64,000 nt of DNA from contig JACPFF010000005.1 of NCBI GenBank assembly GCA_016183065.1, positions 21 through 64,020 of the forward strand. The letters run 5' to 3'. Positions within the stretch are counted from its first letter, which is position 1. The number at the start of each line of letters is the position of its first letter. The notes beneath the pieces were generated by a model, which was given only the letters and a program-made list of their open reading frames with translations, made no database searches and had not been told where the DNA came from. This document shows, in pieces, positions 6,084-42,420 of this stretch. This DNA is from Deltaproteobacteria bacterium (GTDB taxonomy: Bacteria; UBA10199; GCA-002796325; JACPFF01). Both the position numbers and the translations under genes were made by a program.

Positions 6084-6110
6084 GCAACTTCTTTCTGCGA
6101 CTGCCGATAC
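6084..6110 (+). promoter_or_regulatory. Sigma28-like promoter motif
   Basis: GCAACT-N13-GCCGATAC. Confidence 0.7.
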
Positions 6111-6167
6111 CGTACTGGAGTGGGTGGAGGTCTGTTCCATCAGGCGATAGGGCAAGGAGATCAGAAC

Positions 6168-7112
6168 ATGGCCGGCGCACAACTGTCGCTTGTGGCTCAA
6201 ACCGCTCGACAATATATCCGAGCTTTTCAGCAGACACCAATACCCCGGGCACCGACGCGCCGATTCTTTCGAACCGATCCCGATGCGGGTCGCCTGCTGG
6301 AAAACTGCGTGGCACATCCCCGGCTCACTGGCGCACTGTACCGCCACATGCAGGATTCCCAATTGCAAGGCGAAATCCTCCGTGCTGGTGTGGAGGCGAG
6401 CAATAACTATGAGGGAGGCCTCTCTCTCGGATTTCTTGATCCCGATATTCTCTGCACCGTCGGATCCGAGGAATTTCGCAAGGGATTTACGATGGGACAA
6501 GTCCTCTATTTGAAATTGCGCCCAGTCTCGGAAAAGCGATGGAAGCGATTCGGCACTCTGATGACCGGGGTTTCTTTACTCTATCTTCATGCGACACACC
6601 TGCCAGTCTATGACGCCCGATATCGGGACCTGATCGAATTCCTGACGGGTTCATCCGCGAAAATTGCGAGCGCGCTCTCGCTGGGATCCCTGATGGCCTA
6701 TGGGACCACGACCATGCTCGTGACACGACTCCTTGGCAATGATGCAGAACCCTCTCACCGTTTGATCATCAGGGGTCCATTCCGGTATCATCGGAATCCG
6801 TTTTACGCATCAGTGGGGATGGGGACAACACTCGGTGCGGCCTATCTGGCCCTCATGAATCTCCTGACGGTTTCGCCAAACTACCCCGTCTGTGGCGCGC
6901 TCGGTCTTGGCATGGCCGTGTTGTTCCGCGGGTATCATCTCGGCACCTTGCGGGATGAACGGGCCCTGGAAAAACAGTTTGGATCGGAATACCGCACGTA
7001 TCAGGCCGCGACACCGCGCTACCTTCCCTCGCTGCGTGCACTCTGTTCCGATGCGTGGGGGTGGCTTGCCGGACATTGGCGGACGGCGGGGTCACGCAAA
7101 GAGCATGACTGA
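6168..7112 (+). CDS. ICMT/PEMT-family membrane methyltransferase with orphan N-terminal region
   Basis: LIIRGPFRYHRNPFY and ERALEKQFGSEYRTY...PRYLP; AGGAGA RBS before 6168. Confidence 0.75.
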   Translation: MAGAQLSLVAQTARQYIRAFQQTPIPRAPTRRFFRTDPDAGRLLENCVAHPRLTGALYRHMQDSQLQGEILRAGVEASNNYEGGLSLGFLDPDILCTVGSEEFRKGFTMGQVLYLKLRPVSEKRWKRFGTLMTGVSLLYLHATHLPVYDARYRDLIEFLTGSSAKIASALSLGSLMAYGTTTMLVTRLLGNDAEPSHRLIIRGPFRYHRNPFYASVGMGTTLGAAYLALMNLLTVSPNYPVCGALGLGMAVLFRGYHLGTLRDERALEKQFGSEYRTYQAATPRYLPSLRALCSDAWGWLAGHWRTAGSRKEHD

Positions 7113-7124
7113 CACGAGTGCCTC

Positions 7125-7715
7125 TCACTCAATCCACAACCGCAGTCCCAACGCCTTGAGAATTTTCAGCACATTCGAGAGGCGGATATCCTGGCCTCCC
7201 TTGAATTTGCTCAATGCCACTTGTGTAAGGCCGGTTTTTTCGGCGAGGGTGCGGATGGTCATCCGTTGTTGTGCCACATGCGCAAAGACCACTGCCGCGG
7301 CCTCTTGCGGGCGCTCGACGATGACGGTCTTGGAGGTCCAGGCCTTTCCGAAAAGTTGTTCCACACATGGTCGGTATTTGGCATCGAGCCGTGCCAAATG
7401 GAGCATGTGCTCCTTGCTCAGACGCGACAGCATGAGAAAGCTGACAATGGGCGTCTGCAAGAGCTGGTTGATATTGTCGATCATCAATCCCGAACGTTTT
7501 GCATCCCATCGTCCACGTGTCAGCTGTTGAAAATACGCGAAGTGCTCATCGCCTCGCGGATCACGATCGAACACCAGTTGCAACATATGCGAGCCTGACG
7601 CATGACCCGAAATGTTTAGCTGATCCCAGATGACGCGCTTGATCGCCGTCTGGAGGCACAACTGGGCAGCATTCACGAACAAATCGATCTGCACTTTGTC
7701 TACCGGCATTGTCAT
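7125..7715 (-). CDS. Protein with C-terminal XRE HTH, candidate antitoxin
   Basis: MTIRTLAEKTGLTQVALSKF...IRLSNVLKILKALG; overlaps the kinase stop. Confidence 0.75.
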   Translation of the reverse strand: MTMPVDKVQIDLFVNAAQLCLQTAIKRVIWDQLNISGHASGSHMLQLVFDRDPRGDEHFAYFQQLTRGRWDAKRSGLMIDNINQLLQTPIVSFLMLSRLSKEHMLHLARLDAKYRPCVEQLFGKAWTSKTVIVERPQEAAAVVFAHVAQQRMTIRTLAEKTGLTQVALSKFKGGQDIRLSNVLKILKALGLRLWIE

Positions 7716-8440
7716 TGTGATTTCCGATACAACGCAAAAACATCCTGCAATGTTGCCACGGTCCGCATCTGCTGGAGACGGCGCTGTAATGCTTCTTGTT
7801 CGCCCCCGTCCCGCAGGGGGACGAGCTCCGGCAATCGCTGCTGCAGTTGCGCAATACGCTGTACCATATCACTTTTTGGTTTCTTGTGCAGCGCAGTACG
7901 GCACGCAATCTCAAAGAGCTGGAGGTAGTGGGGCAGGCTGCCATCATATCGAAGAAAACCGTGTGCGGAATCGATCAAAATGATCCGGCGTTGCACAAAG
8001 TCATACAAATAATTTGCATCATGACGATCGATTTGTCCGGTCAACCAATCAAAACAGGCGCACTCAAAGACATTGTCGAGATCCAACGCGAGCGGACCCT
8101 GGTCAGTGATGAAATGATGGGCATCCGGCAGATCCAACCACAGCTGCACGGTGGTCATGCGACCAAGGAGAACCAGCGGCGGGTTTTCAAGACCGAGCGC
8201 CTTCGCGACTCGATAGGCCCACCATTCACGCTCTGCAAGTGAACCACTCTTTACGGGAATCTGGCACTCACGGTGATTGCGTTCAGAGACCCGTTTCCAA
8301 AACAGCTTGCCGATTTTTGTCTGGTACAATCGCTGAATCGCGGTCTGACCTCGGGAAGGATAGTGCTCAAGGGCCAGTGGCACCATCTTCCCATGGGCCA
8401 GCGCCGATTGAATGCGCTTGAGAGTGAAGTCGCTCAACAT
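7712..8440 (-). CDS. HipA/PI3-PI4-kinase-like protein
   Basis: FWK...EREWWAY...FDWLTGQIDRHDANYL...LIDSAHGF. Confidence 0.75.
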   Translation of the reverse strand: MLSDFTLKRIQSALAHGKMVPLALEHYPSRGQTAIQRLYQTKIGKLFWKRVSERNHRECQIPVKSGSLAEREWWAYRVAKALGLENPPLVLLGRMTTVQLWLDLPDAHHFITDQGPLALDLDNVFECACFDWLTGQIDRHDANYLYDFVQRRIILIDSAHGFLRYDGSLPHYLQLFEIACRTALHKKPKSDMVQRIAQLQQRLPELVPLRDGGEQEALQRRLQQMRTVATLQDVFALYRKSQ

Positions 8441-8476
8441 GGAATAAAGTATACTTAATAAATTATAGTTTATCAA
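8441..8476 (-). promoter_or_regulatory. Sigma70 promoter, leaderless
   Basis: TTGATA-17-TATACT, 7 nt before ATG 8440. Confidence 0.75.
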
Positions 8477-8507
8477 TAATAGTTTTCTTTCTTGTTTTCT
8501 TTCTCCC

Positions 8508-8844
8508 TTAATGGTGAGAAGCGGCCAACGGTCCATCCGGGCGGACATGAGGTGCCAGCACGGCGTACGGGATCACCATTTCTTGGGGCCCGACCGCATA
8601 GGGGGCCACCTGGTAGAGATCAAAGGTGCTCCGCAATCCCTCTGGCGTGACACTCCATCGCACAAAATTTTCTCGGGTCGGTGCCACCCCTTCGTCGAAC
8701 AACCTGCCGTTCGACCACCGATACCTTGTCGGGCACTGCCGGCACCGTGGATGTCGCCGGTGACACGGCCGCGCCGGGCGGCGCGCTATGGCACACACTG
8801 GCGCAGAGCATGCCGACGGAACCGCACATCATGAATAATCGCAC
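8508..8844 (-). pseudogene. Deleted/frameshifted DUF3298 (RsiV-like) secreted protein
   Basis: Signal-peptide-like start in one frame; DUF3298-type F..YQVAPYAVGPQEMVIPY in another; central domain missing. Confidence 0.6.
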
Positions 8845-8972
8845 ACGTATAATACCGCCTCTCTCAGCGCTTTCACCCGTATTTTTCGCCAGGCGCCATC
8901 ATTATCTGTTGCGCGACTTTCAGCTGGTCAGCGACCAGATTTTCCTTTATGGAGCGGCGGAAGGAGCGTGGG

Positions 8973-9161
8973 ATGGGAAAAATCGGATGGACAGAGATCC
9001 TGGTGTTGTTGGCGGTGGTGCTGATCTTTTTTGGGGCCAAGCGGCTCCCTGAGATTGCGCGGTCCTTTGGGAAGAGCATCCAGGAATTCAAGAAAGGCTT
9101 CAGCGAAAAAGACCAGAATGGGCCTGATAAGGGCTCGCACAACCCGCCGCACAACCAATGA
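8973..9161 (+). CDS. tatA: Twin-arginine translocase TatA
   Basis: IGWTEILV...FFGAKRLPEIARSFGK. Confidence 0.95.
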   Translation: MGKIGWTEILVLLAVVLIFFGAKRLPEIARSFGKSIQEFKKGFSEKDQNGPDKGSHNPPHNQ

Positions 9162-9949
9162 TGCACGACAAGCCGGAGCCGATCGGAAAACACCTGACCG
9201 ATCTGCGGGCCATGCTCATCCGCATGCTGGTTGTCGTTGCGCTGGCGGCTGGCAGCGCTTTTGCCTTTGCCCCGGCGCTGTTCCGCCTCCTGCAACGCCC
9301 CTATCTGCGGATCCTGGAAAGTGCCGGCCGCGAGAGGGCTTCGGTTTTTTTACAGACCTTGGAGCCGTCGGAAACCTTTAAAATCAGCTTCACGGTCGCC
9401 CTGATCCTTGGCAGTGCTGTCGTTCTCCCGTATCTCCTCTACGAGCTCTGGCGGTTCATTCGCACGGGCCTCTTCCCCAAGGAACGGCGATTCGCACTGC
9501 CGATTGTGGTCAGTGGAACGCTCCTCTTTTTTGGCGGGGCCCTCTTTGCCTATTTCATGGTCGTCCCGCTCGTGCTGGCCTTTTTCTGGGACTACAGCTT
9601 GCGCCTTGGCGTCACACCGGCATGGTCGATCAGCCAGTATATCGATTTTGTCCTTGGCCTGCTGGTCGCCTTTGGGCTCTCGTTTGAACTCCCGGTGGTC
9701 GCATCGATCCTTGCCGCCGCCGGCATCGTCTCTGCCCAGATGATGCGCAAGATACGGGGCTATGCGATCTTTGCCATCTGCCTGGTCTCCGCACTCCTCA
9801 CGCCCTCTGATGTGGCCAGCATGCTCCTCATGGCCATCCCGCTGGTGGCCCTGTATGAAATTTCGATTCTGATTGCGACAGTGATTGGACGGAAGCAACA
9901 GATGGCGGTCGACACACATCGCACGCAAGACGGAGAGATCGCACCATGA
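9158..9949 (+). CDS. tatC: Twin-arginine translocase TatC
   Basis: HLTDLR, FELP, LTPSD, LYE motifs. Confidence 0.95.
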   Translation: MMHDKPEPIGKHLTDLRAMLIRMLVVVALAAGSAFAFAPALFRLLQRPYLRILESAGRERASVFLQTLEPSETFKISFTVALILGSAVVLPYLLYELWRFIRTGLFPKERRFALPIVVSGTLLFFGGALFAYFMVVPLVLAFFWDYSLRLGVTPAWSISQYIDFVLGLLVAFGLSFELPVVASILAAAGIVSAQMMRKIRGYAIFAICLVSALLTPSDVASMLLMAIPLVALYEISILIATVIGRKQQMAVDTHRTQDGEIAP

Positions 9950-19448: not shown

Positions 19449-20258
19449 TCAACGCATGGACGGAAACTCTGCAGCCTCGAACAACCGTTCGCAGGTATGT
19501 TTGAATCGGTGCCACCAGGAAGAGGCCGGGTCAGGAACCCGCCCTTGTGCCAAGAGGGTCGCAAAGGATTCATACGAGACCGTCAGGGGATCCCGCGTAT
19601 CATAGGGATGGAACCGCACGCGCACGGCAACGGGTGTGTCGTAAATCTGTTGCACCCGCTCTGCATCGCTCCCCGCTGGCAGAGAACGCAGCATATTGCC
19701 ATCGACGCAATAGACCCGCACGGTCTCGTCGCGCATGGTCCGTCCCATCATGAAGTTGCCCAATAAAAGATCTTCCGAGGTCAATCCGGCAGCAGCCATG
19801 CGACGCACAACAATATCCACCAATGCCTCAACCTCCATATCTATCGCACGAGACCTCGCAAGCGCTGCCAGCGTCACGCCATAGACACGTTCTTTCACCA
19901 GGAGAAAATCTGGACCCAGGCGATGCAGTCCAAAGGAGCGCGGTCCCACATCCAAGCCGGCCAATCGTCCACTGACGATGGCATCCTCCTCAATCGTCGC
20001 TTCGCGAGATTGGCCATCACCCATCATCAACATGCCGAATGAATGTATCGCCAACTTGATCACCGCGGAGGGGGCATGGGGATGTTCAAACACCTTCCCC
20101 AATGAGCCGGCCCCGAGACACCGTAATCGCCTGCCGTTCCACGTCAGGCGCCTCCCGCGCACCTGAATGCCCGACACGTTGTCGGGCTGGCCCGGGGCAC
20201 CACTCGGTATCACACAGTGTCGGCGCCAGCCATCCTGTCGGCCACATCGCATGCCCAC
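19449..20258 (-). CDS. Orphan atypical protein kinase-like protein
   Basis: LGAGSLGKVF, AVIKL, EDLLLGNFM, CVDGN. In-frame GTG at 20258 is 7 nt after the promoter motif; ATG 20252 is an alternative start. Confidence 0.65.
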   Translation of the reverse strand: MGMRCGRQDGWRRHCVIPSGAPGQPDNVSGIQVRGRRLTWNGRRLRCLGAGSLGKVFEHPHAPSAVIKLAIHSFGMLMMGDGQSREATIEEDAIVSGRLAGLDVGPRSFGLHRLGPDFLLVKERVYGVTLAALARSRAIDMEVEALVDIVVRRMAAAGLTSEDLLLGNFMMGRTMRDETVRVYCVDGNMLRSLPAGSDAERVQQIYDTPVAVRVRFHPYDTRDPLTVSYESFATLLAQGRVPDPASSWWHRFKHTCERLFEAAEFPSMR

Positions 20259-20265: not shown

Positions 20266-20292
20266 TTATCGGCAGATCGGGAAAAAAGTTGC
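20266..20292 (-). promoter_or_regulatory. Sigma28-like promoter motif
   Basis: GCAACT-N13-GCCGATAA. Confidence 0.75.
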
Positions 20293-22298: not shown

Positions 22299-23147
22299 CT
22301 ATGACCTCGTCTTTGACGAGGGACGCTCTTCGGCAATCGCTCTCTGGCTGAGGGGATAATCCGTGACGACCTCATACGACCTACCGTTGTCCCTCTCGTT
22401 ATCCATGTAGGGGATATCCCCGATGAGCGTCCCGGTGGATGGGTCGCGTCGCAGAGTCCCGGTGGAGAACTCCGTCCGGGCCGTTCCGGGATCGCGAAAT
22501 GTGTAAGTCTCCGTGGCCGGGTCATATCCGTCAATGAGAATGAGGTGATCGAAGGGATTGGGGCCGCCCCCCTCTTCCGGCCTAAACCGGTGCACCACCA
22601 CTGCCACAGGGAGATGATGCTCCGCGACCATCTTGGTAATTCTCGCGACAGTCTCTCTGGCGTTGTCGGGATTCACCACCAGGCGCCCTTTGGCAATGGT
22701 CGGTCCCTCCAGATTCAGCACCGAGGACGTTTTCCGCAAAGTATCGTTCCCAGGGATCTCGAGTTGCCATTCCGGGGCATGCACCCGGAGGTACTCCCTG
22801 ACCATCTGCCAGACCGCATGCCGGCAATAATAGGTCCCACCATCGGGCAATCTCTTCGGAACCGCCCCCCCCGCCACCCATTTGTATTGGCTGATAAACC
22901 GGACCGGCAATTGCACCCGTTTTTCCGGGCGGAGCCAGGTCACCCACTGTGCGGCGGTATCTGCGAAACGACCCGCCTGAGACACCACCGCATCGGCCGT
23001 CGTCTCTACCGCAATTCGGGCAGCAGAGAGCACAATGGTCGCCGGATCCGGAACCCATCGCGCGAGCGAGGCGACGGCGACCCGCACACCTTCCCGAATG
23101 CCGTGCATTGCCTGACGGACCGCTCCGACCCCATCCTCGACCCGCAC
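22299..23147 (-). CDS. Orphan with C39-like papain-fold peptidase domain
   Basis: ISQY...YCRHAVWQM...DHLILIDGYD...FRDPG (Q, C, H, D order). Confidence 0.65.
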   Translation of the reverse strand: MRVEDGVGAVRQAMHGIREGVRVAVASLARWVPDPATIVLSAARIAVETTADAVVSQAGRFADTAAQWVTWLRPEKRVQLPVRFISQYKWVAGGAVPKRLPDGGTYYCRHAVWQMVREYLRVHAPEWQLEIPGNDTLRKTSSVLNLEGPTIAKGRLVVNPDNARETVARITKMVAEHHLPVAVVVHRFRPEEGGGPNPFDHLILIDGYDPATETYTFRDPGTARTEFSTGTLRRDPSTGTLIGDIPYMDNERDNGRSYEVVTDYPLSQRAIAEERPSSKTRS

Positions 23148-23177: not shown

Positions 23178-23206
23178 GTATCGGCCAATCAGATCTCTGG
23201 AGTTGC
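23178..23206 (-). promoter_or_regulatory. Sigma28-like promoter motif (longer spacer)
   Basis: GCAACT-N15-GCCGATAC. Confidence 0.55.
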
Positions 23207-31185: not shown

Positions 31186-31212
31186 GCAACTTTTGCCTCA
31201 ACCAACCGATAC
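31186..31212 (+). promoter_or_regulatory. Sigma28-like promoter motif
   Basis: GCAACT-N13-ACCGATAC, 7 nt before ATG 31220. Confidence 0.75.
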
Positions 31213-31219: not shown

Positions 31220-32110
31220 ATGGGGAATCCAATCAGACGGGGAGTACGGCCCTATGGGGTCGGAATAACAGCGTATCAGGCAGACCGCCAAGCCTGGTGC
31301 GAAAAGCTCGCACAACGCCCGGGCTCGGGAGATTATGAGGTACTCCCTGCGAATGCGCGATATCAGCCGCCATCATCGAGGGAGAGATCGATCTCTGGCT
31401 TGGTGGCCACCATCCGCGCGATCACGCCGCATTACCTTCAACCGGCAGAGCGGCGGACGCACGGTTTGCCATTACCACTTGCGATTGATACCGTCTTGAC
31501 ACACGATCTTTTTGCCCCTCAGCATCAGCATCCTGACACACGATTCACACCATTCGATCAGGCCATGGCGTTTCCGTATCCCAGATTTGACGCCTTTCTC
31601 CGCGCGCTGCAACTGTGGCGCGGCTATCCTGCACAACAGGAGACCTTCATCGAGAACGCCACGGGGCCCGTGTTGTATACGCTGGCGGCCGCTTGTCGCG
31701 CCGGATACGGTGACGTCGTGAGTGTCGATACTCCCCAAACGGTGGCACGGCTCAACTTTCAATCGCGCAGAGTTGGCTCGTCGCACCTCTCTTTCAGACC
31801 CTCTACGGACCCTCTCACCGGTCACGTGGTCGTCTGGACCCACCCTGCCCCCTGGGGAGAGGGCGGTGGAGAAAAGAGGGAGCACGACCTGAGATGGCTT
31901 TCTCCGGCCTACCTGACGCGTCACGTTGTCATCGGCGGGGATTTGATCATTCAGACGGAAAGTTCGGGGAGCATATTTGACATCCACGATGTCAGTCGTG
32001 CGCCGGGGCGTTGGGGGTTGGTCGATTTTTCCCTCGGTCAACCGCTCGTCCCGGGCGGCACGAGTTTGGGGTTTTATACCCTGTGGACCTGGTGGCACCG
32101 ATTGGCATGA
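31220..32110 (+). CDS. Orphan protein, possible degenerate class I methyltransferase fold
   Basis: Long ORF after the promoter motif; IENATG / VVSVD / HPAPW / GGDLIIQTE. Confidence 0.6.
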   Translation: MGNPIRRGVRPYGVGITAYQADRQAWCEKLAQRPGSGDYEVLPANARYQPPSSRERSISGLVATIRAITPHYLQPAERRTHGLPLPLAIDTVLTHDLFAPQHQHPDTRFTPFDQAMAFPYPRFDAFLRALQLWRGYPAQQETFIENATGPVLYTLAAACRAGYGDVVSVDTPQTVARLNFQSRRVGSSHLSFRPSTDPLTGHVVVWTHPAPWGEGGGEKREHDLRWLSPAYLTRHVVIGGDLIIQTESSGSIFDIHDVSRAPGRWGLVDFSLGQPLVPGGTSLGFYTLWTWWHRLA

Positions 32111-32145: not shown

Positions 32146-32172
32146 GCAACCTTTGTCAATACGCACCGATAC
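32146..32172 (+). promoter_or_regulatory. Sigma28-like promoter motif
   Basis: GCAACC-N13-ACCGATAC, 7 nt before ATG 32180. Confidence 0.75.
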
Positions 32173-32179: not shown

Positions 32180-33475
32180 ATGATGGGATTGCCTCGTCTT
32201 GTCTCCAGCGTTCGCACCTCGCCCCTCTTTCGTGCAGCACCTGTGGCTGGCATGGCAACGCTGGTTGGCGGGTGTAAGGATCCGCGAGAGCTCTACGTGA
32301 TGGCAGGAATTGTCGGTAGCGTAGCTCTGTGGCAAGGCATCAGCCGCTTTCGCGCACGTGCATCGGCGCACGCCAATGCACCACAACCGGCATATCCCCT
32401 CAGCAGCTTTCTTGGCCCCGAAGTCCCACCGGAAAAAAACTGGGCGCGCGGCGATCTTGCAAACACCATTGCCGAGCAAGCCGCACGTACGGGTATCGCT
32501 ATGGTCTGTGGGTTCCTTCGAAGCGGCAAGACATCGCTTGTCCATGGCGTACGAACGACCTTGGCTAAACAAGGATACGTCGATCTAGGCTCTATCGACT
32601 TTCGAGGCGATAAAAATCCCATGCAACAATTGTGCAGAGGCATACGCAGTAGTCTCTGGCATCTGCCGCGAGAATTTCTCGAAGAGGTGCGACGCACCTT
32701 GCCGAATGATGGGGCAACCCTGCAACGACTGGACGCCTTGCTTGAAACGCTTGCATTACGCGGCGTCATTAGTTTGGCGGAGCTTGGCGCAATTGAGCGT
32801 GCAGAGACACTGACATGGCTTCGTTCAGCAGCCACAGGACTTGCACATCTCGTTGTGATCTTGGACGCGCCCTACCGGCCAGATATTGCAACAGCCTTTC
32901 ACGATGTCCCGACGTATTGGACGCGCAATCTTACGCGGGCCGAAATGGGCCAATTTCTTCGCGCTATCGCTCAGCGCGATACCAGAGGGACGTCCCTCTG
33001 GACTTCAGCGCGCATGGATCGGATCTGGGAACTTACCGGCGGACATTTGTATCTGACCAATATCCTCCTGACCACCTTCTACAAACGTGTACCTCCCAAG
33101 ACCCAGAAGCAACGTCGCTTGGACGCCGCACTCGCAGCGGCAGCCGACGATGTGCTCACCCTCAATACCGCCGACGATCGTTGGTTGCCATTAGCCGTCG
33201 CGTGTGTCTTAAGCGGTCTCACAGTCGCACATTGCAGGCTCTTGCAACAACTCAGTCAGCAACCCGGAACGCTCGATGACGCTCAAGTGGCAACATTATA
33301 TCCGTTTCTCCAAATGGGTTGGATCGAACGCGACTCGCAGGGCCATCGTATTTGCGGTGAAATTGTCCGGCAGGTCTTCGCCCATATGGACATCGCACAC
33401 TTCTCTCCCACCGAAGATTGGCTCTCCGAGCATCACCGGCAACAGTTTCCCCAAAGACCAGCTCGCCCCTCTTGA
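32180..33475 (+). CDS. Orphan P-loop (STAND-like) ATPase with N-terminal hydrophobic segment
   Basis: Walker A GFLRSGKTS; LTGGHLYL; Walker B degenerate (ISLAEL). Confidence 0.7.
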   Translation: MMGLPRLVSSVRTSPLFRAAPVAGMATLVGGCKDPRELYVMAGIVGSVALWQGISRFRARASAHANAPQPAYPLSSFLGPEVPPEKNWARGDLANTIAEQAARTGIAMVCGFLRSGKTSLVHGVRTTLAKQGYVDLGSIDFRGDKNPMQQLCRGIRSSLWHLPREFLEEVRRTLPNDGATLQRLDALLETLALRGVISLAELGAIERAETLTWLRSAATGLAHLVVILDAPYRPDIATAFHDVPTYWTRNLTRAEMGQFLRAIAQRDTRGTSLWTSARMDRIWELTGGHLYLTNILLTTFYKRVPPKTQKQRRLDAALAAAADDVLTLNTADDRWLPLAVACVLSGLTVAHCRLLQQLSQQPGTLDDAQVATLYPFLQMGWIERDSQGHRICGEIVRQVFAHMDIAHFSPTEDWLSEHHRQQFPQRPARPS

Positions 33476-33512: not shown

Positions 33513-33539
33513 GCAACTTTTTCCGCCATCGCCCGATAA
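33513..33539 (+). promoter_or_regulatory. Sigma28-like promoter motif
   Basis: GCAACT-N13-CCCGATAA. Confidence 0.75.
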
Positions 33540-33574: not shown

Positions 33575-35194
33575 ATGGGAAAGACTGGCTCCATACCGCC
33601 CGGCACGCACGCACGCGCAAGGCCTGTCCACGCCGAGGTCATGCCAAACACGCCCGTCGCAGGTGACGCAACCGCCGCGGCCACTGTTTTAGGCCACTCC
33701 ACGGCAGAAACACCTCCCCCGCTGGGCCCTCTCGGCGCACAAACCGCGGCAAGCGCCGCCCGGTGGGGCATGACACCTGGGCCGCGCATCGCCGCCGACA
33801 TGCAGCGGGCAGATGCACTATATCGCCACTATGTCACCGAAGTGCCGTGGCGGTTTCTCCCGATTCAAGACGGTCTGACGATGTTGGATACGGCAGTCAC
33901 AGAAGACACCCCGCGGGTCGATGCCAGCTACGATGGCCCGCTGGCGAGTGATGATCCGGCGGCCCTTTTCGCGATCGACATTTCACAGTACCATCGCACG
34001 CGTGAGGCCATTGTGATCAACAAAATCCTCTCTGACTTTGACAGGGCTTCTCGTGCCAGTGAAACATACCTGACTATCGTGGCCGAAGCGGTCTTTGATC
34101 GATTGGTGCAAAGCGAATCGGGCTCGGTCGAGTGGAAATTTCTGGCGGAGATGGACCGGAGCGCCATGGCAATGGCTGACGAGGCAGGCGTCGAGATTGC
34201 GCGTTATAGGAAAATCCTCTGCTGCATGGTCATCAAGGCCCACCTGCGGGCACTCGGGAGGATCCGCGACGTGTTCGAACAGATGTGCGCCATACGGGAA
34301 GCGCCGTGGTTCTTTGCTCTGTTGATTGAAATCTGCCTCGGTCCACTCAAAGACGCTATCGCCCACGACGCACGCCGATGGGAGGCGTTTTGGGGGACGA
34401 CGAAGACGTTTGCCGCATTTGTGGAGCTGCTCGACCGACTTCCCAATGACCTGTTGCGTCCAATCGACAAAGGCATCGTGAATCAATTACGGACCCTCTA
34501 TCCCAATATCCCCTATGTGCTGCGAGGATACCGGATCTTGGAGCCCTCCTTCCTCCCGTTTCCCTTCAATGCCGCCTTGCGGCACAAGAATGATCCGGAC
34601 AATTTTGGGTCCTATTGCAAGTTTCCCGTTTTTATCGTCCGTGATGCATCTGATCGCACAGCAGAGGAGAAACGACGGACCATCCGTCATGAGGCGATTC
34701 ATTCTCTCGTCGGTACGGCACGCATTGCGCACCTGCTGACCGCATTGTACATCCGAAATCACAACCTTGAGCGACTGTTTGCCGAAGGGATCACCGAGCT
34801 GCTCACGCGCCATGCGGGTGAAGTCCTCGATGCCGAGGCCACAGAGGCCCGTGCCGTCACTCCCGAGGCGCTCATCCAACAGCGCCACTCAGACTTTGCA
34901 CACACGCTCCAGGCCGTTCAGCAGATCCCCGGTGACTTTTATTCCGTGGCCGTCACGCTCGCCATTGGTCTGGCGCGCCGACTCGGGTTTCCAAGGTTTC
35001 TGGCACTCTTCACAGCGGCGCAGTATCAGGCGGGCTATGCACTGACACCTGAAGAGATTGCCGCCCTTCAGCCCATTTTTCAACAGTTGGGCACGCGTAT
35101 CGACCAGGCCGTGACGAATTCTTCGGAGGCGCCCTTCCTCCCACACGACGTGGCAGAGGAGGTGTTTACCATGTTGCAGGGGGACGGGAGCTGA
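33575..35194 (+). CDS. Orphan with zincin metalloprotease motif
   Basis: TIRHEAIH...FAEGITE; low-complexity N-terminus. Confidence 0.7.
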   Translation: MGKTGSIPPGTHARARPVHAEVMPNTPVAGDATAAATVLGHSTAETPPPLGPLGAQTAASAARWGMTPGPRIAADMQRADALYRHYVTEVPWRFLPIQDGLTMLDTAVTEDTPRVDASYDGPLASDDPAALFAIDISQYHRTREAIVINKILSDFDRASRASETYLTIVAEAVFDRLVQSESGSVEWKFLAEMDRSAMAMADEAGVEIARYRKILCCMVIKAHLRALGRIRDVFEQMCAIREAPWFFALLIEICLGPLKDAIAHDARRWEAFWGTTKTFAAFVELLDRLPNDLLRPIDKGIVNQLRTLYPNIPYVLRGYRILEPSFLPFPFNAALRHKNDPDNFGSYCKFPVFIVRDASDRTAEEKRRTIRHEAIHSLVGTARIAHLLTALYIRNHNLERLFAEGITELLTRHAGEVLDAEATEARAVTPEALIQQRHSDFAHTLQAVQQIPGDFYSVAVTLAIGLARRLGFPRFLALFTAAQYQAGYALTPEEIAALQPIFQQLGTRIDQAVTNSSEAPFLPHDVAEEVFTMLQGDGS

Positions 35195-35195
35195 C

Positions 35196-37394
35196 ATGCC
35201 ACGGGTACGACCGCCAACGACTGTTCGCGCGGGGTTGAATTTCAGAGGCACCACGGGAAAAGCCGCTGCCGTTTCTTCTGGACCAGGGCTTCCTGCAGCA
35301 GTGGGCGACATCGCCATTGCCGCCCTCGGCGCCCAATCCGCGGCAAGTGCTGCCCGGTGGGGCGCAACGCCGGGCCCAATGCTCGCGAGCCAACTGCGAC
35401 AGGCCGGTGAGCCCGCTCATCTGGTCGCCGCTCGCGAAGTTGAGTGCCTCATGGTTGAGATTCGTCACCGCACCGGATTTGGTGATCCGGCACACCAGAT
35501 CATCTTGGACTCTCCTCATCTTCCTCATCAACACCTCACCCTCTGGCATGGACTCACAGACCCTGGCGAAGCAACGTGGGCCGCATGGGTGGAACATGGG
35601 AAAAGACTCGATAACGCACTACAACAGGGACCGGAGCCTCAAGGGATCGACCCCCTCCTGGAGGCCCTGTACGAATTAGGGGTCCGCTTTGAGTATACCA
35701 CACCTCTCAGCCACATCGAGATGATGAACGATGCGGAGATGCTGGCCCTAATGCAACAGATGATCCAAGACGGGCTCCCAGAACCGATGGCCCGCACCCC
35801 CGGGGCCCATGTGGCACAGGGAGCGCCTCGGCAATGGATCGCATCCGCGGCACTGACCATGTTCCGGCTGATTGTCGTTCGCGGCCGTGATGATCGGCTG
35901 TATGCATTTCCACCGCAACTCGCTCGTCTGGATGCCCTCGTCCGTCTCTTGATCCGAAAAGCCGGCCTCGAGATTGAGTCCGCGTTCGAACAGATGACGG
36001 AGCTGATCTGCGGCCATATGGAGAACGCACGCGTGAATCGCCTCGAAACAGTCCCGGAAAGCTATGTTTCAGCGTTTACCCTCACTGTACGACACGCGCT
36101 GACCGATGGAGTGATTGACGGGCGAACAATTATGAAATTACTCGAAAAACGACATGGCTTTCGGACGATTGCTGAGTGGGCCGTGAAGTTCACTACACTG
36201 CAGGGGCACGTCTATTATTACGTCGATCCGTGCCGTTTTGCCAAATCAGTTGGCACACACGTGATGACCTCCCTGAGCAGCATGCAGGACCTCGTCGCCG
36301 CACTCAAATCACCGGTGGTGGAGGCTCGATTAGCCGCAATCGCCGGTCCTTCGAGATATTATGCCGTCAGTGGATACGGGGGATATGGGAAATCATGCAG
36401 AATCTCTGGCATCGAGGTTTCGCCGATATCCGCGGACCGCAATGAGTGGATGAGGGAGTTTCGAAAGAAACACCACCAGTGTGCTATTATCGATACGAGA
36501 GAGAGAGGCCCTGATCGCCTTGCCCGTGTCAAAAGTCTCCTCATGGCTGCTGTATGGGATAACATCGATCTCACCAACATTGGCGCACCGGAAGCGATGA
36601 GCAGGCTCGAAGCGCACATTTGGACGACCGGGCGTGGTCTAGAGTACAGCCTTGCACAATATCAAGGAGAGAACAGATCACGAATTGGACAATATGGCCC
36701 TGCAACATTTGTCGCTGATCTGAAAAATGGAGGGCATCTTCGATCGGCCTGGCACCGTATGTTCCCTCTGAAGCCCATACCTGCCATGGTCCGGATTGAA
36801 TTCGTCGATAAGAGTCGGCGTATTGGCGCAATCAGGATTGTTGCCGGCAGTGTCCAACCGCTTGCAATGCCGGCAGGTCGGGGACAGATCACCCTACAGA
36901 TCGATGAGGGGAGTCGTGCACCGACACTACTCCATCATTCTGCGAGGGTAGATACTATCGCCATCTGGGATGAAATCGATCTCCATTCTGTCGGGCAGGC
37001 GAAAGGCATTTCTCGGCTCGCGGCCCAAATATGGGCAACACGACGCGACGTTGTTCAAGGATTGACGCAATATAAACAGCAGTACGAAACGGTCATCGGT
37101 TCCTATCTGGTGCACTCCTTTGTCGCCGATCTGCAGGAAGCGGCCCAACTCGCAACCGCCTGGGCGATGGCGTTTCCCGGCATCTCGATCCCCTCCGCCA
37201 TTCGAGTACAATGGACGAATGCGCCTCTTCAGATGATCGGCAAGATTCGCTTTTCTGATGCCACAACACTCGGTTCCCCGTTGAAAAAGCATGAAGGCGA
37301 GCTCTCGGTGCAACGGACGGACGGTCGATATGTGATACCGCCATCCACGGTCAGCGGCTACGGCCGCGAAGAGATCCTTGCGGCATTGTCATAG
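35196..37394 (+). CDS. Large orphan with duplicated C-terminal domain
   Basis: 732 aa ORF 1 nt after the previous gene; internal 137-aa repeat. Confidence 0.75.
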   Translation: MPRVRPPTTVRAGLNFRGTTGKAAAVSSGPGLPAAVGDIAIAALGAQSAASAARWGATPGPMLASQLRQAGEPAHLVAAREVECLMVEIRHRTGFGDPAHQIILDSPHLPHQHLTLWHGLTDPGEATWAAWVEHGKRLDNALQQGPEPQGIDPLLEALYELGVRFEYTTPLSHIEMMNDAEMLALMQQMIQDGLPEPMARTPGAHVAQGAPRQWIASAALTMFRLIVVRGRDDRLYAFPPQLARLDALVRLLIRKAGLEIESAFEQMTELICGHMENARVNRLETVPESYVSAFTLTVRHALTDGVIDGRTIMKLLEKRHGFRTIAEWAVKFTTLQGHVYYYVDPCRFAKSVGTHVMTSLSSMQDLVAALKSPVVEARLAAIAGPSRYYAVSGYGGYGKSCRISGIEVSPISADRNEWMREFRKKHHQCAIIDTRERGPDRLARVKSLLMAAVWDNIDLTNIGAPEAMSRLEAHIWTTGRGLEYSLAQYQGENRSRIGQYGPATFVADLKNGGHLRSAWHRMFPLKPIPAMVRIEFVDKSRRIGAIRIVAGSVQPLAMPAGRGQITLQIDEGSRAPTLLHHSARVDTIAIWDEIDLHSVGQAKGISRLAAQIWATRRDVVQGLTQYKQQYETVIGSYLVHSFVADLQEAAQLATAWAMAFPGISIPSAIRVQWTNAPLQMIGKIRFSDATTLGSPLKKHEGELSVQRTDGRYVIPPSTVSGYGREEILAALS

Positions 37395-37535: not shown

Positions 37536-37562
37536 GCAACCTTTCCTGAATGTTGCCGATAA
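37536..37562 (+). promoter_or_regulatory. Sigma28-like promoter motif
   Basis: GCAACC-N13-GCCGATAA. Confidence 0.75.
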
Positions 37563-37594
37563 TACGTATTGAGGGGATCACCGAAGGAACCCAC

Positions 37595-38119
37595 ATGTTA
37601 CGCAAATCACGTCGCCGGACGTTTGGACTCGCCATCATCGCGGTGGTCGTGATCCTTGGCGCGCTCTGGTATCGGACACATCCACAAGATATTGTTTTTG
37701 CTGGTGAAAATTCAACTCGTTTGATCGATCGATATGCCGATCGGATGGCAAAATACGCCGATCCCAATTTCTATGAAGGGCATTTTCAGCAGCGCCCGCG
37801 AACCGAGGGAGAATGCGCATATTTCGGCCTCCAACGACACGGGGCGGTCACGATTGCGATGGTCTCGGCACAACATCTGGCACTGACGATCAACGACCTC
37901 CCGTTTACCCTTACGGGAAGTGATCCGTCGCAGTTTGACATGTATTACTACACTGGCGAGCTCAGCTCGATCCGCTACGAAGTCGCGATCTCGACGCAGC
38001 GACGCGCGGAAACTGGCGATGACCTGCTGGCACTCTTCCTGACTGGCGCCGGACATCACTGCACCGCGCTCTTTGATCGGACCGCGGTGTTTGACCTTCA
38101 GTCGACAAAAATTAATTAG
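37595..38119 (+). CDS. Hypothetical protein with N-terminal membrane anchor
   Basis: MLRKSRRRTFGLAIIAVVVILGALWY; AAGGA RBS. Confidence 0.7.
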   Translation: MLRKSRRRTFGLAIIAVVVILGALWYRTHPQDIVFAGENSTRLIDRYADRMAKYADPNFYEGHFQQRPRTEGECAYFGLQRHGAVTIAMVSAQHLALTINDLPFTLTGSDPSQFDMYYYTGELSSIRYEVAISTQRRAETGDDLLALFLTGAGHHCTALFDRTAVFDLQSTKIN

Positions 38120-38359: not shown

Positions 38360-38569
38360 ATGTCGAGACAACGTGGAACCGTAAAATGGTTCAATGAAAG
38401 TAAAGGGTTCGGGTTCATCACCCCCGAGAATGGTGGCAAGGATCTCTTTGTCCACTTTTCGAATATCGTCGGTGACGGCTTCAAATCCCTCGAAGAAAAC
38501 CAAAAGGTGGAATTCGAGGTCGAGGTCGGACCGAAGGGTGAGTTCGCGGCAAAAGTTGAAAAGGTCTAA
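38360..38569 (+). CDS. cspA: Cold-shock protein
   Basis: GTVKWFN, KGFGFI, LFVHFS; long AT-rich 5' region. Confidence 0.96.
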
Positions 38570-38591
38570 GACCGTCAACATTCCTTACGAC

Positions 38592-38630
38592 ACACCGCCG
38601 TTCAGCACATGCTGAACGGCGGTTGTGTTT
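38592..38630. terminator. Hairpin terminator after cspA
   Basis: CCGCCGTTCAGCA-CA-TGCTGAACGGCGG followed by TTGTGTTT. Confidence 0.75.
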
Positions 38631-38898
38631 CTGGACGAGGGCCGCAAATGCCCACACGATCGATCAAGGCCAGTTTCTCCCGCCGCGACCAGTGTTTGAT
38701 TTCGACCTCTCGCTTGAGCGCCGCCGATTTGGTCTCGAAAGTCTCATGATACCGGAGGGCCGCAAAGCCGAAACCGCGCACGAATTTGGCCCCACGACCA
38801 TCACGGTGTTGGGCCATCCGCCGCTCGAGGTCGGTCGTATAGCCCACATAGAGCCGCCCGTCCGCCGCTTCGAGGATGTAGACAAAATGTGAGGCCAT
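38602..38898 (-). CDS. GIY-YIG nuclease family protein
   Basis: FVYIL...LYVGYT..L.RR..QH...ALKRE; TTGCGT-16-TATACT 6 nt before ATG. Confidence 0.9.
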   Translation of the reverse strand: MASHFVYILEAADGRLYVGYTTDLERRMAQHRDGRGAKFVRGFGFAALRYHETFETKSAALKREVEIKHWSRREKLALIDRVGICGPRPETQPPFSMC

Positions 38899-38974
38899 GA
38901 GGGGAGTATAGTCTCTCGCGAGGCAGACGCAATCTTTGTCTGTCGCCCGCATTTTGCACTGCAACGAATCCGTT

Positions 38975-39391
38975 TTACGCGGTGGTGTATGCCCGAAAAC
39001 CCGCGATGGCAAAGTGGTGGTCAAAGGTAAAGGCGGTTTCCAATTTCCGTGCCGTCATTACGGCAAACGAGACGGCATCCGTCATCGAAAACGCTTGGTC
39101 GGCAAAGCGCTCCAGCCATTCCAATGCCGAAATTTCGATCTCTCGTGTCACCGAAAACACGTCAAGGCGGTGCGAGCCGTAGATTTCCCGCGCCACCTGC
39201 AGCCCTCCCTTGGCATTGATCCGGTACGAAAGCAGCGTAATGAGCTCGGCAACGACGAAGTTGGTGGTCAGACACGCTACGCCACGCGTGGCAATCTCCC
39301 GCCACGTCTTCACCGCCCCTGCATGATGCGCATCCCGAGCCACATATCGGGCATAAAAGGCCCCGGTGTCGATAAACAGGCTCTGTGTCAA
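38975..39391 (-). CDS. vapC: PIN-domain toxin (VapC)
   Basis: FIDTGA...E...SMTDAVSF...TFD.HF. Confidence 0.92.
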   Translation of the reverse strand: MTQSLFIDTGAFYARYVARDAHHAGAVKTWREIATRGVACLTTNFVVAELITLLSYRINAKGGLQVAREIYGSHRLDVFSVTREIEISALEWLERFADQAFSMTDAVSFAVMTARKLETAFTFDHHFAIAGFRAYTTA

Positions 39392-39630
39392 TGCGGTCCC
39401 CGCTGCAGCAAATAGTGGTCGTGATGCTGCGCCTCATCGGTCGGACCATGCTCCTGAAAGATCGTCTGACTGGCAAAAAAGGAATCCTGGCCGGTTTTAC
39501 CGCGAAGGATCAGGAGGTATTTTTCCAGGACCTGACGCACCATTTCCCCGAACGAAATCCCCTTTTTGTGTGCTGCACGCTCTAAGGCTGATTTGACCGT
39601 CTCAGGCAGCATGATCGTTGTTCTGTGCAT
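39388..39630 (-). CDS. vapB: CopG/RHH antitoxin (VapB)
   Basis: RTTIMLP...GISFGEMVRQVL; overlaps vapC; TTGCAT-16-TATAAT promoter with an 8-bp inverted repeat. Confidence 0.85.
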   Translation of the reverse strand: MHRTTIMLPETVKSALERAAHKKGISFGEMVRQVLEKYLLILRGKTGQDSFFASQTIFQEHGPTDEAQHHDHYLLQRGPH

Positions 39631-39779
39631 ATATATTATTATAATTATGACATAATATAATGCAAGAGGAATCTTGTGTGGTCAGATGCAGCATCGCCTC
39701 TGGCTGATGGGGGCCCTGATGGGGATGAGGTACATACCTTGCAAAAAAAACGCGGAAAGAGGTGTCCGCATCACTCCGT

Positions 39780-40385
39780 CTATGGCCACAAGAACGAGAA
39801 CCCGCCGGTAAAGGTGGTGTCGACATCAAACCGCGCGCCTTGCGGGCGCGGAGTCATGTGGGCGTAATTGTTGACATCGATCACCACGGCATACCATGAG
39901 GCCCGTGGATAGAGTTTGACCCCGCCGCCGAGGACGCCCATCGGCTCCCATACGGCATTGAGCTGCATGCTGCCGGCCCCCACGGTCAGATAAAAATCCA
40001 TTTCGACCATCCTGCGCCCAAGGCGGAGCGCGGCATCGTTGGAGATCAACACCTCGCCACTCACCATGTGAATGTCGCGCGTCGTGAGACTCTGGCCATA
40101 AGCCCCGCTGGCATCGGCTCTGTTGCGGACATAACCGTAGTGCGCGCCCAGCGCCCATGTCTCATTGACATGGTATCGGCCCCTGGCGCCGGCCGTCCAC
40201 GTCTGGCCGAGATGGCGCCCCAGATAACTCCCGCCATAGGGATTCAATTCCCATTGATGACATGCCCGGTGGCGCATGGCGGGATCGAGTGCCATCGAGA
40301 GAGAAGTCGTTGCCTCGGCGCCCTGGAGTGACATCGCGAGGCACCCGATGAACGTCAACAGGAAGAGCGATGGGCCATGGCGCAT
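39780..40385 (-). CDS. Outer membrane beta-barrel protein
   Basis: Signal peptide, amphipathic strands, DFYLTVGAG, terminal GFSF. Confidence 0.75.
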   Translation of the reverse strand: MRHGPSLFLLTFIGCLAMSLQGAEATTSLSMALDPAMRHRACHQWELNPYGGSYLGRHLGQTWTAGARGRYHVNETWALGAHYGYVRNRADASGAYGQSLTTRDIHMVSGEVLISNDAALRLGRRMVEMDFYLTVGAGSMQLNAVWEPMGVLGGGVKLYPRASWYAVVIDVNNYAHMTPRPQGARFDVDTTFTGGFSFLWP

Positions 40386-40409
40386 GGCCGCTCTCTATAC
40401 AGAAATCCT

Positions 40410-42365
40410 CTATGCCGCAATCCCTTCTCGTGATGCGGCACTGGCAAAGGCTCGGCACACAGCCTCAACGGAATCGATGCCACCCTGCAGGACCCGCGAG
40501 GCCACATGCCGCAGCGTGGTTGATTGAATCGGCAGTGGGAGGAACGAGAGCAATCGACGCATCTGTTGATTGTCCACCGCATCCTGGCTGATCACCACGC
40601 GGAGGACCATCCATGCTTCCTCATCGGTCCCAGGCCGCCATGTCGTGATCCGGCGCCCAATGTCCTGTTCGAGCTTCGCGGCACCGTGGGCGCGAAGCGT
40701 CTCCAGCTGCTGCAACGAGGCGATCCCCCTGGCGGCCGTGCCGTTGCCAGGAAGATGGCTCCTCCCGTCCGCTGTCACACCAAGTGCATCGCAGGCACTT
40801 TGAAACAACTCCTGCTCCCATCGAAGCCTACGCCCGTGCGGGATATATTCGGGAATCGTCGCCAGCGGATTCGTCTCAACAAAGAGCAAACTCGCCGTCG
40901 CAAAGTCGCTGGCCGCCCAGCCGCGGAGCATGGCCATCCGGTATTCCATGCCAATCGTTTGCGATCGGAGATATCGTTGCCACATGGCATAGAGTACCAA
41001 CCAATCGATCACCACCGGCACCCCACTCGGCAGGGAAGGGTCTCCCTCCATTCTCTTCTCAAACGCCGCCACGTCCGTGGATGTCGCATGGACACTCCGT
41101 AACCAATCAGATAACTGCGCCACCCGTGACGGCCGCAAAGATCGGTGTTCGTCTTCCGACCCGGCAGGCCGTGCAGTAGTGAACGGTGACGGCGATTGCG
41201 CGGTGCGGATGGAGGGGTGGTCAATACGGTCAAAAGAGATCTCCAGAGAAAATGTGGAATCGTTCAGCACGCTCCGCAGCACCCCTTCGAGCATCTGCAA
41301 ACACTCTGGCGACGTCCCCGAGAGCGGCGCGTGGCTGATACGCTCTGTCCCCTCCGGAGTATCCTGCCACTGTTTTGTTCGCTCTGCGGTAATCGCGGCA
41401 CGCCATGCACTGAGGATCTGTGGGATGAGGACCTTGCGATGCTGGTGTTCCCCCTTTGGGATGTCGATCAACCCCTGATGGTTCAGATGCCGGTCAATCA
41501 CCCAGCGGAGGGCTGTCACGACATGAAAGGCCCGCAATCGTTCCAACAACACGCCGATAGCCTGCAGCCCACCCGATCCAAATGCATAACTGAAGATCGC
41601 CATGATATCTCGGGCATCGCGTTGGGTCCGTTTCACTGACGGGCCAAATAAAAGCTGGCCCAAGGCCGTGACCCGATTGCAGGCCGTGCTGGCCCTGGCC
41701 GCAACCCACTGTTCGACGAAGGCCTCTATCGGTCCCTGCCAGTGCGATGTGACGGGACCCGCTGGCCCGACCTGGGCGTGGCCCGCGCGTTCGAGGGCCG
41801 CCATGACAAATCGAACCCCTTCTGCGGCAAGTTGCGCATCAAAAATGTGCCCCTCGCGTTGCGCCGCTTCACGGAGGGCCGCGGCCAATTGATCGGGAAA
41901 CTCCGTCACCGCGAGTTTCTGCAAAAAAGCGAGGACCATCATTCGCAGGTGCCGTAGCTGCCGGGTCTGCGTCTGTGGCACGACATGGAGCACGGCGTCG
42001 GCGATACGCCCTGCAGGAACGTCTGCCGCGCGCCGATGGACGGTGGCAGAGAGGGCCCGAAAAAGGAGTCGTCCGTGGTGGACGCGATGCTGTTTTGTCG
42101 TATCGGCGCGGGCGGCCCACTGGGCCAGGGCCTGCGAGGCACGATCGATGAGCCCCTCTTCGGATGTAGGACCATGGGGCGCGCGTGCGCCGAGTCTGCG
42201 CACGGGTCCATGCCAGAGTCGCAAGGCCTGCGGCGGAACAATACGGGGAGCGTGCCCCCCTGCCAACACCGTCCGGCCTGTTGACACCGTTCTCCGGGCC
42301 GCGAAAGATGCAGAACGTCCTGCAACCCCCGAGAATCCTACGTTCGCAGCGCCTTTTATCGTCAT
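40410..42365 (-). CDS. Large orphan protein
   Basis: GGAGGA RBS before ATG 42365; Arg/Gly/Ala-rich N-terminus; preceded by the promoter motif. Confidence 0.7.
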   Translation of the reverse strand: MTIKGAANVGFSGVAGRSASFAARRTVSTGRTVLAGGHAPRIVPPQALRLWHGPVRRLGARAPHGPTSEEGLIDRASQALAQWAARADTTKQHRVHHGRLLFRALSATVHRRAADVPAGRIADAVLHVVPQTQTRQLRHLRMMVLAFLQKLAVTEFPDQLAAALREAAQREGHIFDAQLAAEGVRFVMAALERAGHAQVGPAGPVTSHWQGPIEAFVEQWVAARASTACNRVTALGQLLFGPSVKRTQRDARDIMAIFSYAFGSGGLQAIGVLLERLRAFHVVTALRWVIDRHLNHQGLIDIPKGEHQHRKVLIPQILSAWRAAITAERTKQWQDTPEGTERISHAPLSGTSPECLQMLEGVLRSVLNDSTFSLEISFDRIDHPSIRTAQSPSPFTTARPAGSEDEHRSLRPSRVAQLSDWLRSVHATSTDVAAFEKRMEGDPSLPSGVPVVIDWLVLYAMWQRYLRSQTIGMEYRMAMLRGWAASDFATASLLFVETNPLATIPEYIPHGRRLRWEQELFQSACDALGVTADGRSHLPGNGTAARGIASLQQLETLRAHGAAKLEQDIGRRITTWRPGTDEEAWMVLRVVISQDAVDNQQMRRLLSFLPLPIQSTTLRHVASRVLQGGIDSVEAVCRAFASAASREGIAA

Positions 42366-42393
42366 CAATCCTCCACGGCAGCCCCTAGCAAGA

Positions 42394-42420
42394 GCTTCGG
42401 CCCCCCGCAAGGATAGTTGC
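42394..42420 (-). promoter_or_regulatory. Sigma28-like promoter motif
   Basis: GCAACT-N13-GCCGAAGC; a second variant GCAGAC-N13-GCCGATAG at 42543-42569. Confidence 0.6.

Follow-up and report, generated by a model that had tools for sequence, protein, structure and literature searches.

Eight motif copies in the window and the genes behind them

[quoted passage not shown] A scan with GCAACY-N13-VCCGA gave seven matches in the window, where 0.30 were expected and none of 100 shuffles reached seven; their positions and strands were exactly those of an original prediction made from the letters of the window. An eighth copy with an N15 spacer, starting at 23206 on the minus strand, was likewise borne out by the sequence. 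All eight copies were intergenic and faced a same-strand open reading frame (ORF), although 'intergenic' and gene starts are approximate here and below because genes (1698 in G000) were called with our own codon model. The downstream genes had been described as lineage-specific, and none of nine ORFs (the eight first genes and a second gene at 35196..37394) had a Pfam match at E<=0.01.

The copy at 6084..6110 (plus strand; GCAAC..GCCGATAC), found by pattern scan and matrix like those at 20266..20292, 33513..33539, 37536..37562 and 42394..42420, precedes a 314-amino-acid (aa) orphan (6168..7112, plus) with a weak match to PEMT/ICMT membrane methyltransferases (E 0.037/0.12). On the minus strand, the copy at 20266..20292 faces a 267-aa orphan (19449..20252), in which kinase-like motifs were read by eye next to a weak match to the YrbL kinase-like family; the sole match of this protein among 5995 candidates was itself. 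The copy with the spacer 2 nt longer (23178..23206, minus), read directly from the sequence, faces a 282-aa orphan (22299..23147, minus) with a weak Peptidase_C39_2 match (E 0.046); a single-sequence fold of this protease candidate had a pLDDT of 48 and no Foldseek match at E<=0.001. For the plus-strand copies at 31186..31212 and 32146..32172 the predicted +1 falls on the A of an ATG, at 31220 and 32180 respectively, such that a leaderless start is predicted for a 296-aa orphan with no family even at E<=1 (31220..32110, plus) and for a 431-aa P-loop orphan with a weak AAA_22 match (E 0.028; 32180..33475, plus).

The copy at 33513..33539 (plus) leads a two-gene unit, consisting of a 539-aa HExxH zincin-like orphan (33575..35194, plus), with a peptidase MA-like atlas lead of low recognition, and the 732-aa second gene (35196..37394, plus). 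Homologs of the zincin-like protein were found in 3 of 92 other genomes, with the promoter retained in two of those three. The two proteins of the unit have in common a 50-aa N-terminal segment of 46% identity, while their bodies are unrelated; this sharing across 33575-37394 resembles effector end-shuffling. The copy at 37536..37562 (plus) precedes a 174-aa orphan (37595..38119, plus), exceptional in its N-terminal hydrophobic anchor of Sec type, and the copy at 42394..42420 (minus), with the lowest score of the seven (18.2), faces a 651-aa orphan (40410..42365, minus). The kinase, Cys protease, zincin, ATPase and methyltransferase labels once given to these genes go back to visible motifs and weak matches only. 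A sigma70 scan of the window from 30.5 to 43 kb was at chance level (5 matches vs 4.9). The window is a hot spot for the motif: the 80 kb of contig C12 as a whole hold 9 strong sites (11 per 100 kb), vs 73 in 1.97 Mb.

A variant sigma28-type promoter in the genome and the phylum

Iteration of a matrix across G000 settled at 75 training sites, whose consensus is cGCAACTTT-N11-GCCGATAA, and the promoter motif, GCAACTTT-N11-GCCGATAA, was present in 73 strong intergenic copies (score >=16.5). The core of the -10 box was conserved at C74, G75, A73 and T63 of the 75 sites, and the 11-nt spacer between octamers is of sigma28 type; the -35 element is not, the GCAAC/ACAAC form giving 58 matches vs 2 for the TAAAG form. 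The genome-wide matrix thus agrees with the proposal of a sigma28-type promoter with the same -10 and spacing and an altered -35. The pattern on which that proposal was based gave 47 matches across G000 at N13 vs 6-17 at nine other spacings.

In a held-out test, a matrix built from the seven window sites only was run outside contig C12 at a threshold of 17. With the true spacing it gave 58 hits; the eight shifted spacings gave 1-11, and each of ten Markov simulations of intergenic DNA gave 0-3. The held-out hits were intergenic in 54 of 58 cases (baseline 543/4000), and 50 of these 54 faced a same-strand gene (baseline 318/543; p 4e-8).

In the numbering of E. coli sigma28 promoters (C-13 G-12 ATAA N-7), transcription begins at the eighth base past the -10 box. 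This base, a column outside the matrix, was a purine in 61/73 sites (p 5e-9) and was preceded by a pyrimidine in 46/73 (p 0.03); in two relatives the corresponding counts were 29/38 and 28/38. It is proposed, from sequence, that transcription starts about 8 nt past the -10 box, sometimes on the ATG itself. General leaderless translation was considered and rejected; an ATG at +5..+9 occurred in 26/73 sites, yet only 13 of these opened an ORF of at least 100 aa.

Many intergenic copies would also be expected of a dispersed repeat or the end of a mobile element, an explanation to which we give almost no credence. Only 3 pairs of the 73 sites had flanking sequence in common, two of these pairs belonging to paralogous C10/C15 genes, which already contradicts a repeat; moreover, the spacer is free in sequence while its length is fixed, and the site is retained ahead of orthologs of 37-67% identity. 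That the motif is a real promoter we regard as nearly certain.

The strict pattern RCAACNTT-N12-CCGATA was found in 93/93 genomes of the phylum (class and phylum searches gave the identical 93), with 1-59 matches each and 1800 in total vs 7 for a reversed control. Among these relatives are 'Deltaproteobacteria bacterium CG11_big_fil_rev_8_21_14_0_20_47_16', RIFCSPLOWO2_02_FULL_44_10 and ADurb.Bin270, which we take to belong to GTDB phylum UBA10199. A motif-led PilZ gene of G000 had matches in 42/93 genomes, and among its best 30 loci (G000 included) the upstream site was present in 27, vs 1/30 on the other strand. In G000 this gene (L069:1516-2319, contig C27) is followed by a NuoA-like gene, and a NuoA-like match was seen in 6 of the 30 PilZ loci. 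In another relative (G010 C16:2160001-2200000; L141, L142), motif-led orphans stand in tandem, several of them paralogous and each with its own copy of the promoter.

A FliA-family sigma factor within a type III secretion locus

Three sigma70-family genes were found in G000, encoding RpoD, an RpoH-like protein and a 275-aa FliA/WhiG-like protein; sigma54 is also present. The RpoH-like gene (L003:813-1809, contig C17) is interrupted, falling into two frames and lacking part of region 2, either through an assembly error or as a real break. The FliA/WhiG-like gene (C15:231390-232217), the sole sigma28-like gene found, lies inside a non-flagellar T3SS cluster. Its top family is TIGR02479 (E 8e-39), at 133.7 bits under a curated cut-off of 189.6, and its closest solved structures are FliA/WhiG. 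Its region 2 is for the most part like that of FliA. In region 4.2, the helix facing the -35 element reads KSWxSR (KSWTSR in G000) where flagellar FliA has ESRVSQ; we refer to the protein as the KSW sigma. K235, S236, W237 and R240 were invariant in 27/27 ortholog rows. An ortholog was present in 41/41 genomes tested (53-69% identity), and the gene adjoined a SctI-like gene in 27/27 phylum loci, some of them overlapping. The repurposed sigma28-family factor that had been predicted is supported by this FliA-family sigma and its altered region 4.2. A second, divergent KSW-type sigma was seen in one relative (G024 C2; L140), with no T3SS gene within the 8 kb covered, and viral contigs gave one distant sigma match.

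Measured against the E. coli FliA promoter contacts, the KSW sigma retains R58, Q63, T69, R74 and R84 among the -10 contacts, while both -35 backbone contacts are altered (K208 to E, R220 to W). In P. aeruginosa FliA, Q228 reads -36T and is needed for activity; the equivalent residue of the KSW sigma is R. The residues at all three changed positions (K208, R220 and Q228 equivalents) were invariant in 27/27 ortholog rows. From the retained -10 and altered -35 residues, a protein of this kind would be expected to read a normal -10 box with a changed -35. In five flagellated relatives there is a second FliA, in which the helix reads ESR(V/I)SQ or EARVSQ; in a tree with RpoD as a long, weak root, the split between this flagellar FliA and 15 KSW-type rows had 100/98 support.

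The cluster around the sigma gene encodes SctV, a FHA/SctD-like protein, a CdsG-like chaperone, SctJ, the sigma, SctI-like, FliG-like, SctL, SctN, SctO, FliK-like and FliM-like proteins, SctQ, FliO, SctR/S/T and two more SycD chaperones, with SctU on contig C21. SctV, SctN and SctR scored over the profile cut-offs, and SctJ, SctQ, SctS and SctT were strong and under theirs. The T3SS core of G000 (SctJ, N, Q, R, S, T, U, V) is of the non-flagellar type and free of flagellum-specific genes; searches of the 88.8%-complete assembly found neither flagellin nor a rod domain. Across the phylum, SctV was over its cut-off in 79/93 genomes and flagellin was found in 11/93. At the 11 flagellin loci, short stretches in themselves, no GCAAC-type promoter was found and two TAAA-type candidates were (L130, L133).

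Further features of the cluster were observed alongside. FliG-, FliK-, FliM- and FliO-like genes are retained across L005:2794-9532; Abby and Rocha list FliG as absent from Myxo systems. At L005:11867-15590, two orphans alternate with two SycD chaperone genes in an arrangement like a translocon operon. Three secretins lie elsewhere in G000, one each in Tad-like, type IV pilus-like and type II secretion (T2SS)-like clusters as read from the neighbouring genes (L070, which is C28:26100-32000; L057; L087). Tad and T3SS together are the pair that Myxococcus uses in predation.

Before the CdsG-like chaperone gene lies a candidate for the needle subunit (L004:15874-16407), with a Gly-rich N-terminus and a conserved C-terminal helix; an atlas lead of 0.87 connects it to clusters in which 19-27% of members carry T3SS_needle_F. 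The model of its fold showed a single long helix (pTM 0.22), and profile searches for SctF in PDB, Pfam and, across the genome, with PF09392 gave no match.

KSW-type sigma factors also occur outside the phylum. Most of 149 further sigma clusters at 50% identity carried [KR]SWxSR or a near variant, and the named members among 20 clusters looked up were Acidobacteriota, Eisenbacteria, Myxococcales, Hyalangium minutum and Stigmatella aurantiaca. Eighty metagenome loci were collected with the Hyalangium sigma as query; T3SS core genes stood beside the sigma gene in 22/22 loci of at least 8 kb and in 67/80 overall. G[CA]AAC-N16/17-CGATAA was present on the coding strand in 21/21 loci covering 2600-1100 nt upstream of the sigma gene (17 with GCAAC), at a distance of about 1.6 kb from it, vs 0/21 on the other strand or at wrong spacings, these being kindred loci and an interval picked after the first hits had been seen. 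A needle-like gene downstream of the motif was confirmed in 11/21 loci by a strict pattern, and an alignment joined one such gene with the needle candidate of G000 (probability 91%, E 1e-6). In one myxobacterial locus (L186:8484-9032) the needle-like gene precedes a CdsG-like chaperone gene, in a system described as needleless. A second motif match, at the 3' end of the sigma gene before the SctI-like gene, lies within coding sequence and may be a protein effect.

Directly upstream of the myxobacterial sigma gene is a gene for a 131-aa protein with a Gly/Lys-rich N-terminus; 13 members of this set had no match to the FlgM family PF04316. The 131-aa protein is predicted to bind the myxobacterial sigma, the modelled complex scoring 0.82 vs 0.00 for the best of three controls, with contact agreement of at least 78% and a partner pLDDT of at least 71; the score mark applied was reached by 116/157 solved complexes and 2/215 mismatched pairs, although likeness to existing sigma28-FlgM structures may help the score.

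That the promoter belongs to a different sigma factor (RpoH, RpoD with an activator, sigma54, or one whose gene is missing from the 89%-complete assembly) appears very unlikely to us. The incompleteness of the assembly leaves room for it, the assignment to the KSW sigma was made from sequence, and identity with E. coli extends to only 5 of the 11 residues contacting the -10, with Q73, R94, R95, R34 and H26 lost and R98 replaced by K. Against this, sigma28 numbering suits both the -10 box and the +1 position, motif and KSW sigma share one locus in a second phylum, and the flagellar FliA paralogs form a separate clade with their own -35 helix. The sigma54 consensus is GG-N10-GC, and direct reading of the reverse strand of the motif showed no such spacing. 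The KSW sigma embedded in the T3SS very probably reads the promoter.

Regulon content, export and relation to known systems

An ORF followed 72 of the 74 sites that were carried into this comparison. No Pfam match at E<=0.001 was found for 53/72 motif-led ORFs vs 31/130 random upstream-gap genes drawn from 413 eligible (p 6e-12); nine of the 72 came from a 'longest ORF' fallback and are perhaps not genes, and without these the orphan share was 44/63 (p 2e-9). The control set includes the N15 gene and one second-in-unit gene, and an amidase site in coding DNA (C4:22310), with a family, was counted though it should not have passed. In two relatives, no family was found for 30/37 downstream genes, several of them cut at the locus end. 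Orphans are thus enriched behind the motif, though not exclusively: the original prediction had found no copy before a housekeeping gene, which holds inside the window, but genome-wide 19/72 ORFs have a Pfam family, including ABC1 kinase, transglutaminase, M10 protease, prolyl oligopeptidase, FHA and amidase. One relative (G029) adds a motif-led lytic transglycosylase and an LD-carboxypeptidase. Beyond the dispersed arsenal once proposed, the regulon includes cyclic di-GMP (c-di-GMP) and Sec/lipoprotein-type proteins.

Compared with controls, the N-termini encoded by motif-led genes had more Pro and Arg and fewer acidic residues, and the first 60 residues were of low order in 24/47 vs 9/57; low-complexity N-termini, which had been ascribed to most of these genes, are accordingly seen in about half. 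An export classifier was trained on the T3SS's own presumed secreted vs cytoplasmic parts (6 vs 14 families; leave-one-family-out area under the curve (AUC) 0.80). It separated motif-led from housekeeping genes with an AUC of 0.74 (p 5e-6; 0.83 in relatives). In this test of the orphans as candidate T3SS substrates, motif-led genes stand out from housekeeping genes but not from the non-motif orphans treated below. Export is plausible for a large share of the targets, judging by these sequence features; whether the majority of the orphan targets leave by the T3SS we consider an even call. No Ank_2 domain, a host-type clue, was found.

We favour, as the probable explanation, that the T3SS-encoded KSW sigma is a late switch reading the motif, and that many of its dispersed targets are probably T3SS substrates. 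Region 2 of the KSW sigma would read the normal sigma28 -10 box GCCGATAA, and the changed 4.2 helix (KSWxSR for ESRVSQ) would read GCAAC in place of TAAAG, which would keep the KSW sigma apart from the flagellar FliA carried by some relatives. The factor would thereby switch on late functions of the secretion system, in the way that FliA acts in the flagellum, with a secreted anti-sigma presumably gating it. In the myxobacterial loci the putative KSW promoter faces the needle-like gene; in the phylum, its use would have spread to tens of fast-evolving genes at dispersed places, many of them probably encoding T3SS substrates, some surface proteins and one a conserved PilZ protein. The motif with its spacing and strand, its conservation, the synteny, the residue changes and the orphan enrichment are observed; reading of the motif by the KSW sigma, gating by the anti-sigma, export of the orphans and a target cell to receive them are what we infer.

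Several observations, besides the lost -10 contacts, weigh against this explanation. The T3SS cluster of G000 yielded no strong site, its best score being 10.6, and 27 phylum T3SS loci hold only three hits >=14, two of them antisense inside the sigma gene; the G000 apparatus is therefore not visibly under this promoter. A secretin was not found in the G000 T3SS cluster, neither of the two proteins at the translocon position has a strongly hydrophobic helix, the needle assignment is a lead only, and the G000 gene upstream of the sigma had no detectable relation to the myxobacterial 131-aa partner. The 19 targets with a family also include GGDEF, PilZ, a sigma54 activator, ZapA, DtxR and a Phd antitoxin. 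The classifier gave an AUC of only 0.62 (p 0.14) for motif-led genes vs 18 non-motif orphans, and only in motif-led genes was the start codon moved out to the first ATG, which may inflate the N-terminal contrasts. Signal-like (Sec-like) N-termini, first thought not to be obvious among the targets, were present in 9/63 motif-led genes vs 34/130 controls (p 0.07), with the anchored protein at 37595..38119 as a case in the window.

Some of these same observations suit a different account, in which promoter and sigma are as described but control a general life-stage programme, the orphans being mostly cytoplasmic or surface proteins with few exported by the T3SS. The conserved PilZ member, GGDEF, the sigma54 activator and the Sec-type proteins would fit it, as would the lack of a site in the G000 T3SS cluster and the classifier result for non-motif orphans; the attack-phase role of FliA in Bdellovibrio is a precedent, and WhiG in Streptomyces a further model. 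It would not account for a sigma gene fixed inside the T3SS cluster in two phyla, for a promoter facing the needle-like gene in myxobacterial loci, or for 54/63 targets without a signal-like N-terminus, and we judge it unlikely. Returning to the late switch, a wider version, in which an early-branching injectisome kept the flagellar late-gene switch with FlgM-like gating, its output being the needle-like gene in myxobacteria and an effector arsenal phylum-wide, is put forward only tentatively.

In Pseudomonas syringae, the extracytoplasmic function (ECF) sigma factor HrpL is encoded in the T3SS cluster, and the hrp box marks dispersed effectors and drives apparatus operons too. The KSW sigma is like HrpL in being encoded in a T3SS cluster with its presumed box before dispersed genes, and unlike it in belonging to the sigma28 family, in its different box and in that no site was found in the G000 apparatus. 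With the E. coli and P. aeruginosa FliA/sigma28-FlgM systems (10.1101/2020.01.02.893370; PMC12784957) it has in common the -10 box, the spacing, the +1 and the link of the sigma to a type III export machine. It differs in the -35 (GCAAC vs TAAAG), in the changed K208, R220 and Q228 equivalents, in lying under the TIGR02479 cut-off, in a genome in which flagellin was not found and in a partner candidate lacking a FlgM Pfam match. The KSW promoter is, by this analogy, FliA-like in logic and HrpL-like in role, and not a flagellar FliA promoter.

Other uses of sigma28 outside its flagellar role are on record. Campylobacter jejuni has sigma28 promoters before non-flagellar genes (Fed/FspA), some of whose products are exported by type III secretion (PMC9856085); that case involves canonical FliA, a flagellum and a handful of genes, whereas here there are a separate sigma clade, a non-flagellar T3SS and some 70 sites. 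In Bdellovibrio bacteriovorus, a FliA-type promoter was reported at 92/140 attack-phase promoters, many before uncharacterized genes (PMC3627812); its consensus, TTAAG-N16-CCGATA, is used in a flagellated cell, and TTAAG-N15/16-CCGATA had 0 matches in G000. Chlamydia trachomatis sigma28 serves late genes beyond flagella, with only two bound promoters, hctB and tsp (PMC12282069); the likeness lies in use outside flagellar biology, the difference in some 70 sites vs two promoters. The Myxococcus T3SS*/'Myxo' system has a secretin-less cluster of similar gene order (PMC3459982, PMC12075869, PMC12428579), and no needle subunit is described in these papers, in whose main texts a search for the word sigma found nothing. 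Hyalangium/Stigmatella-type sigma factors of the KSW subfamily lie in such clusters, and G000 apparently has a Tad-like system, from the reading of its genes. Full-text searches, limited to main texts and to few subscription papers, found no description of the motif, of a T3SS in UBA10199 or of sigma28 in a myxobacterial T3SS.

For 93 uncultured genomes, the box provides a one-line search key for candidate secreted proteins (1800 strict matches), and it points to an attack or host-contact lifestyle in a phylum for which the literature searched described no biology. For predatory myxobacteria, a putative regulator, promoter and needle candidate are supplied for the T3SS; because these organisms are cultivable and mutable, the question of what their T3SS secretes becomes testable. 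The cluster, with its FliG-, FliM-, FliO- and FliK-like genes and FliA-family sigma, bears on the origin of the injectisome from the flagellum, and the KSW sigma may be a natural case in which few region 4.2 residues switch -35 specificity. Should the flagellar late-gene switch indeed have been kept, the box would predict new effectors numbering about a thousand, and a divergent needle subunit and a dedicated sigma would belong to the 'needleless' T3SS of myxobacteria.

Two minor observations were made among the sites and controls. On contig C23 of G000 (L062:8180-8490), a strong site precedes a same-strand tRNA-Phe by about 200 nt, and no clear protein gene intervenes. Three DUF4423 paralogs (46942-47772 of the window, L066:10817-11653 and L043:8450-9280) were present among the 130 control genes, and none stood behind the motif.

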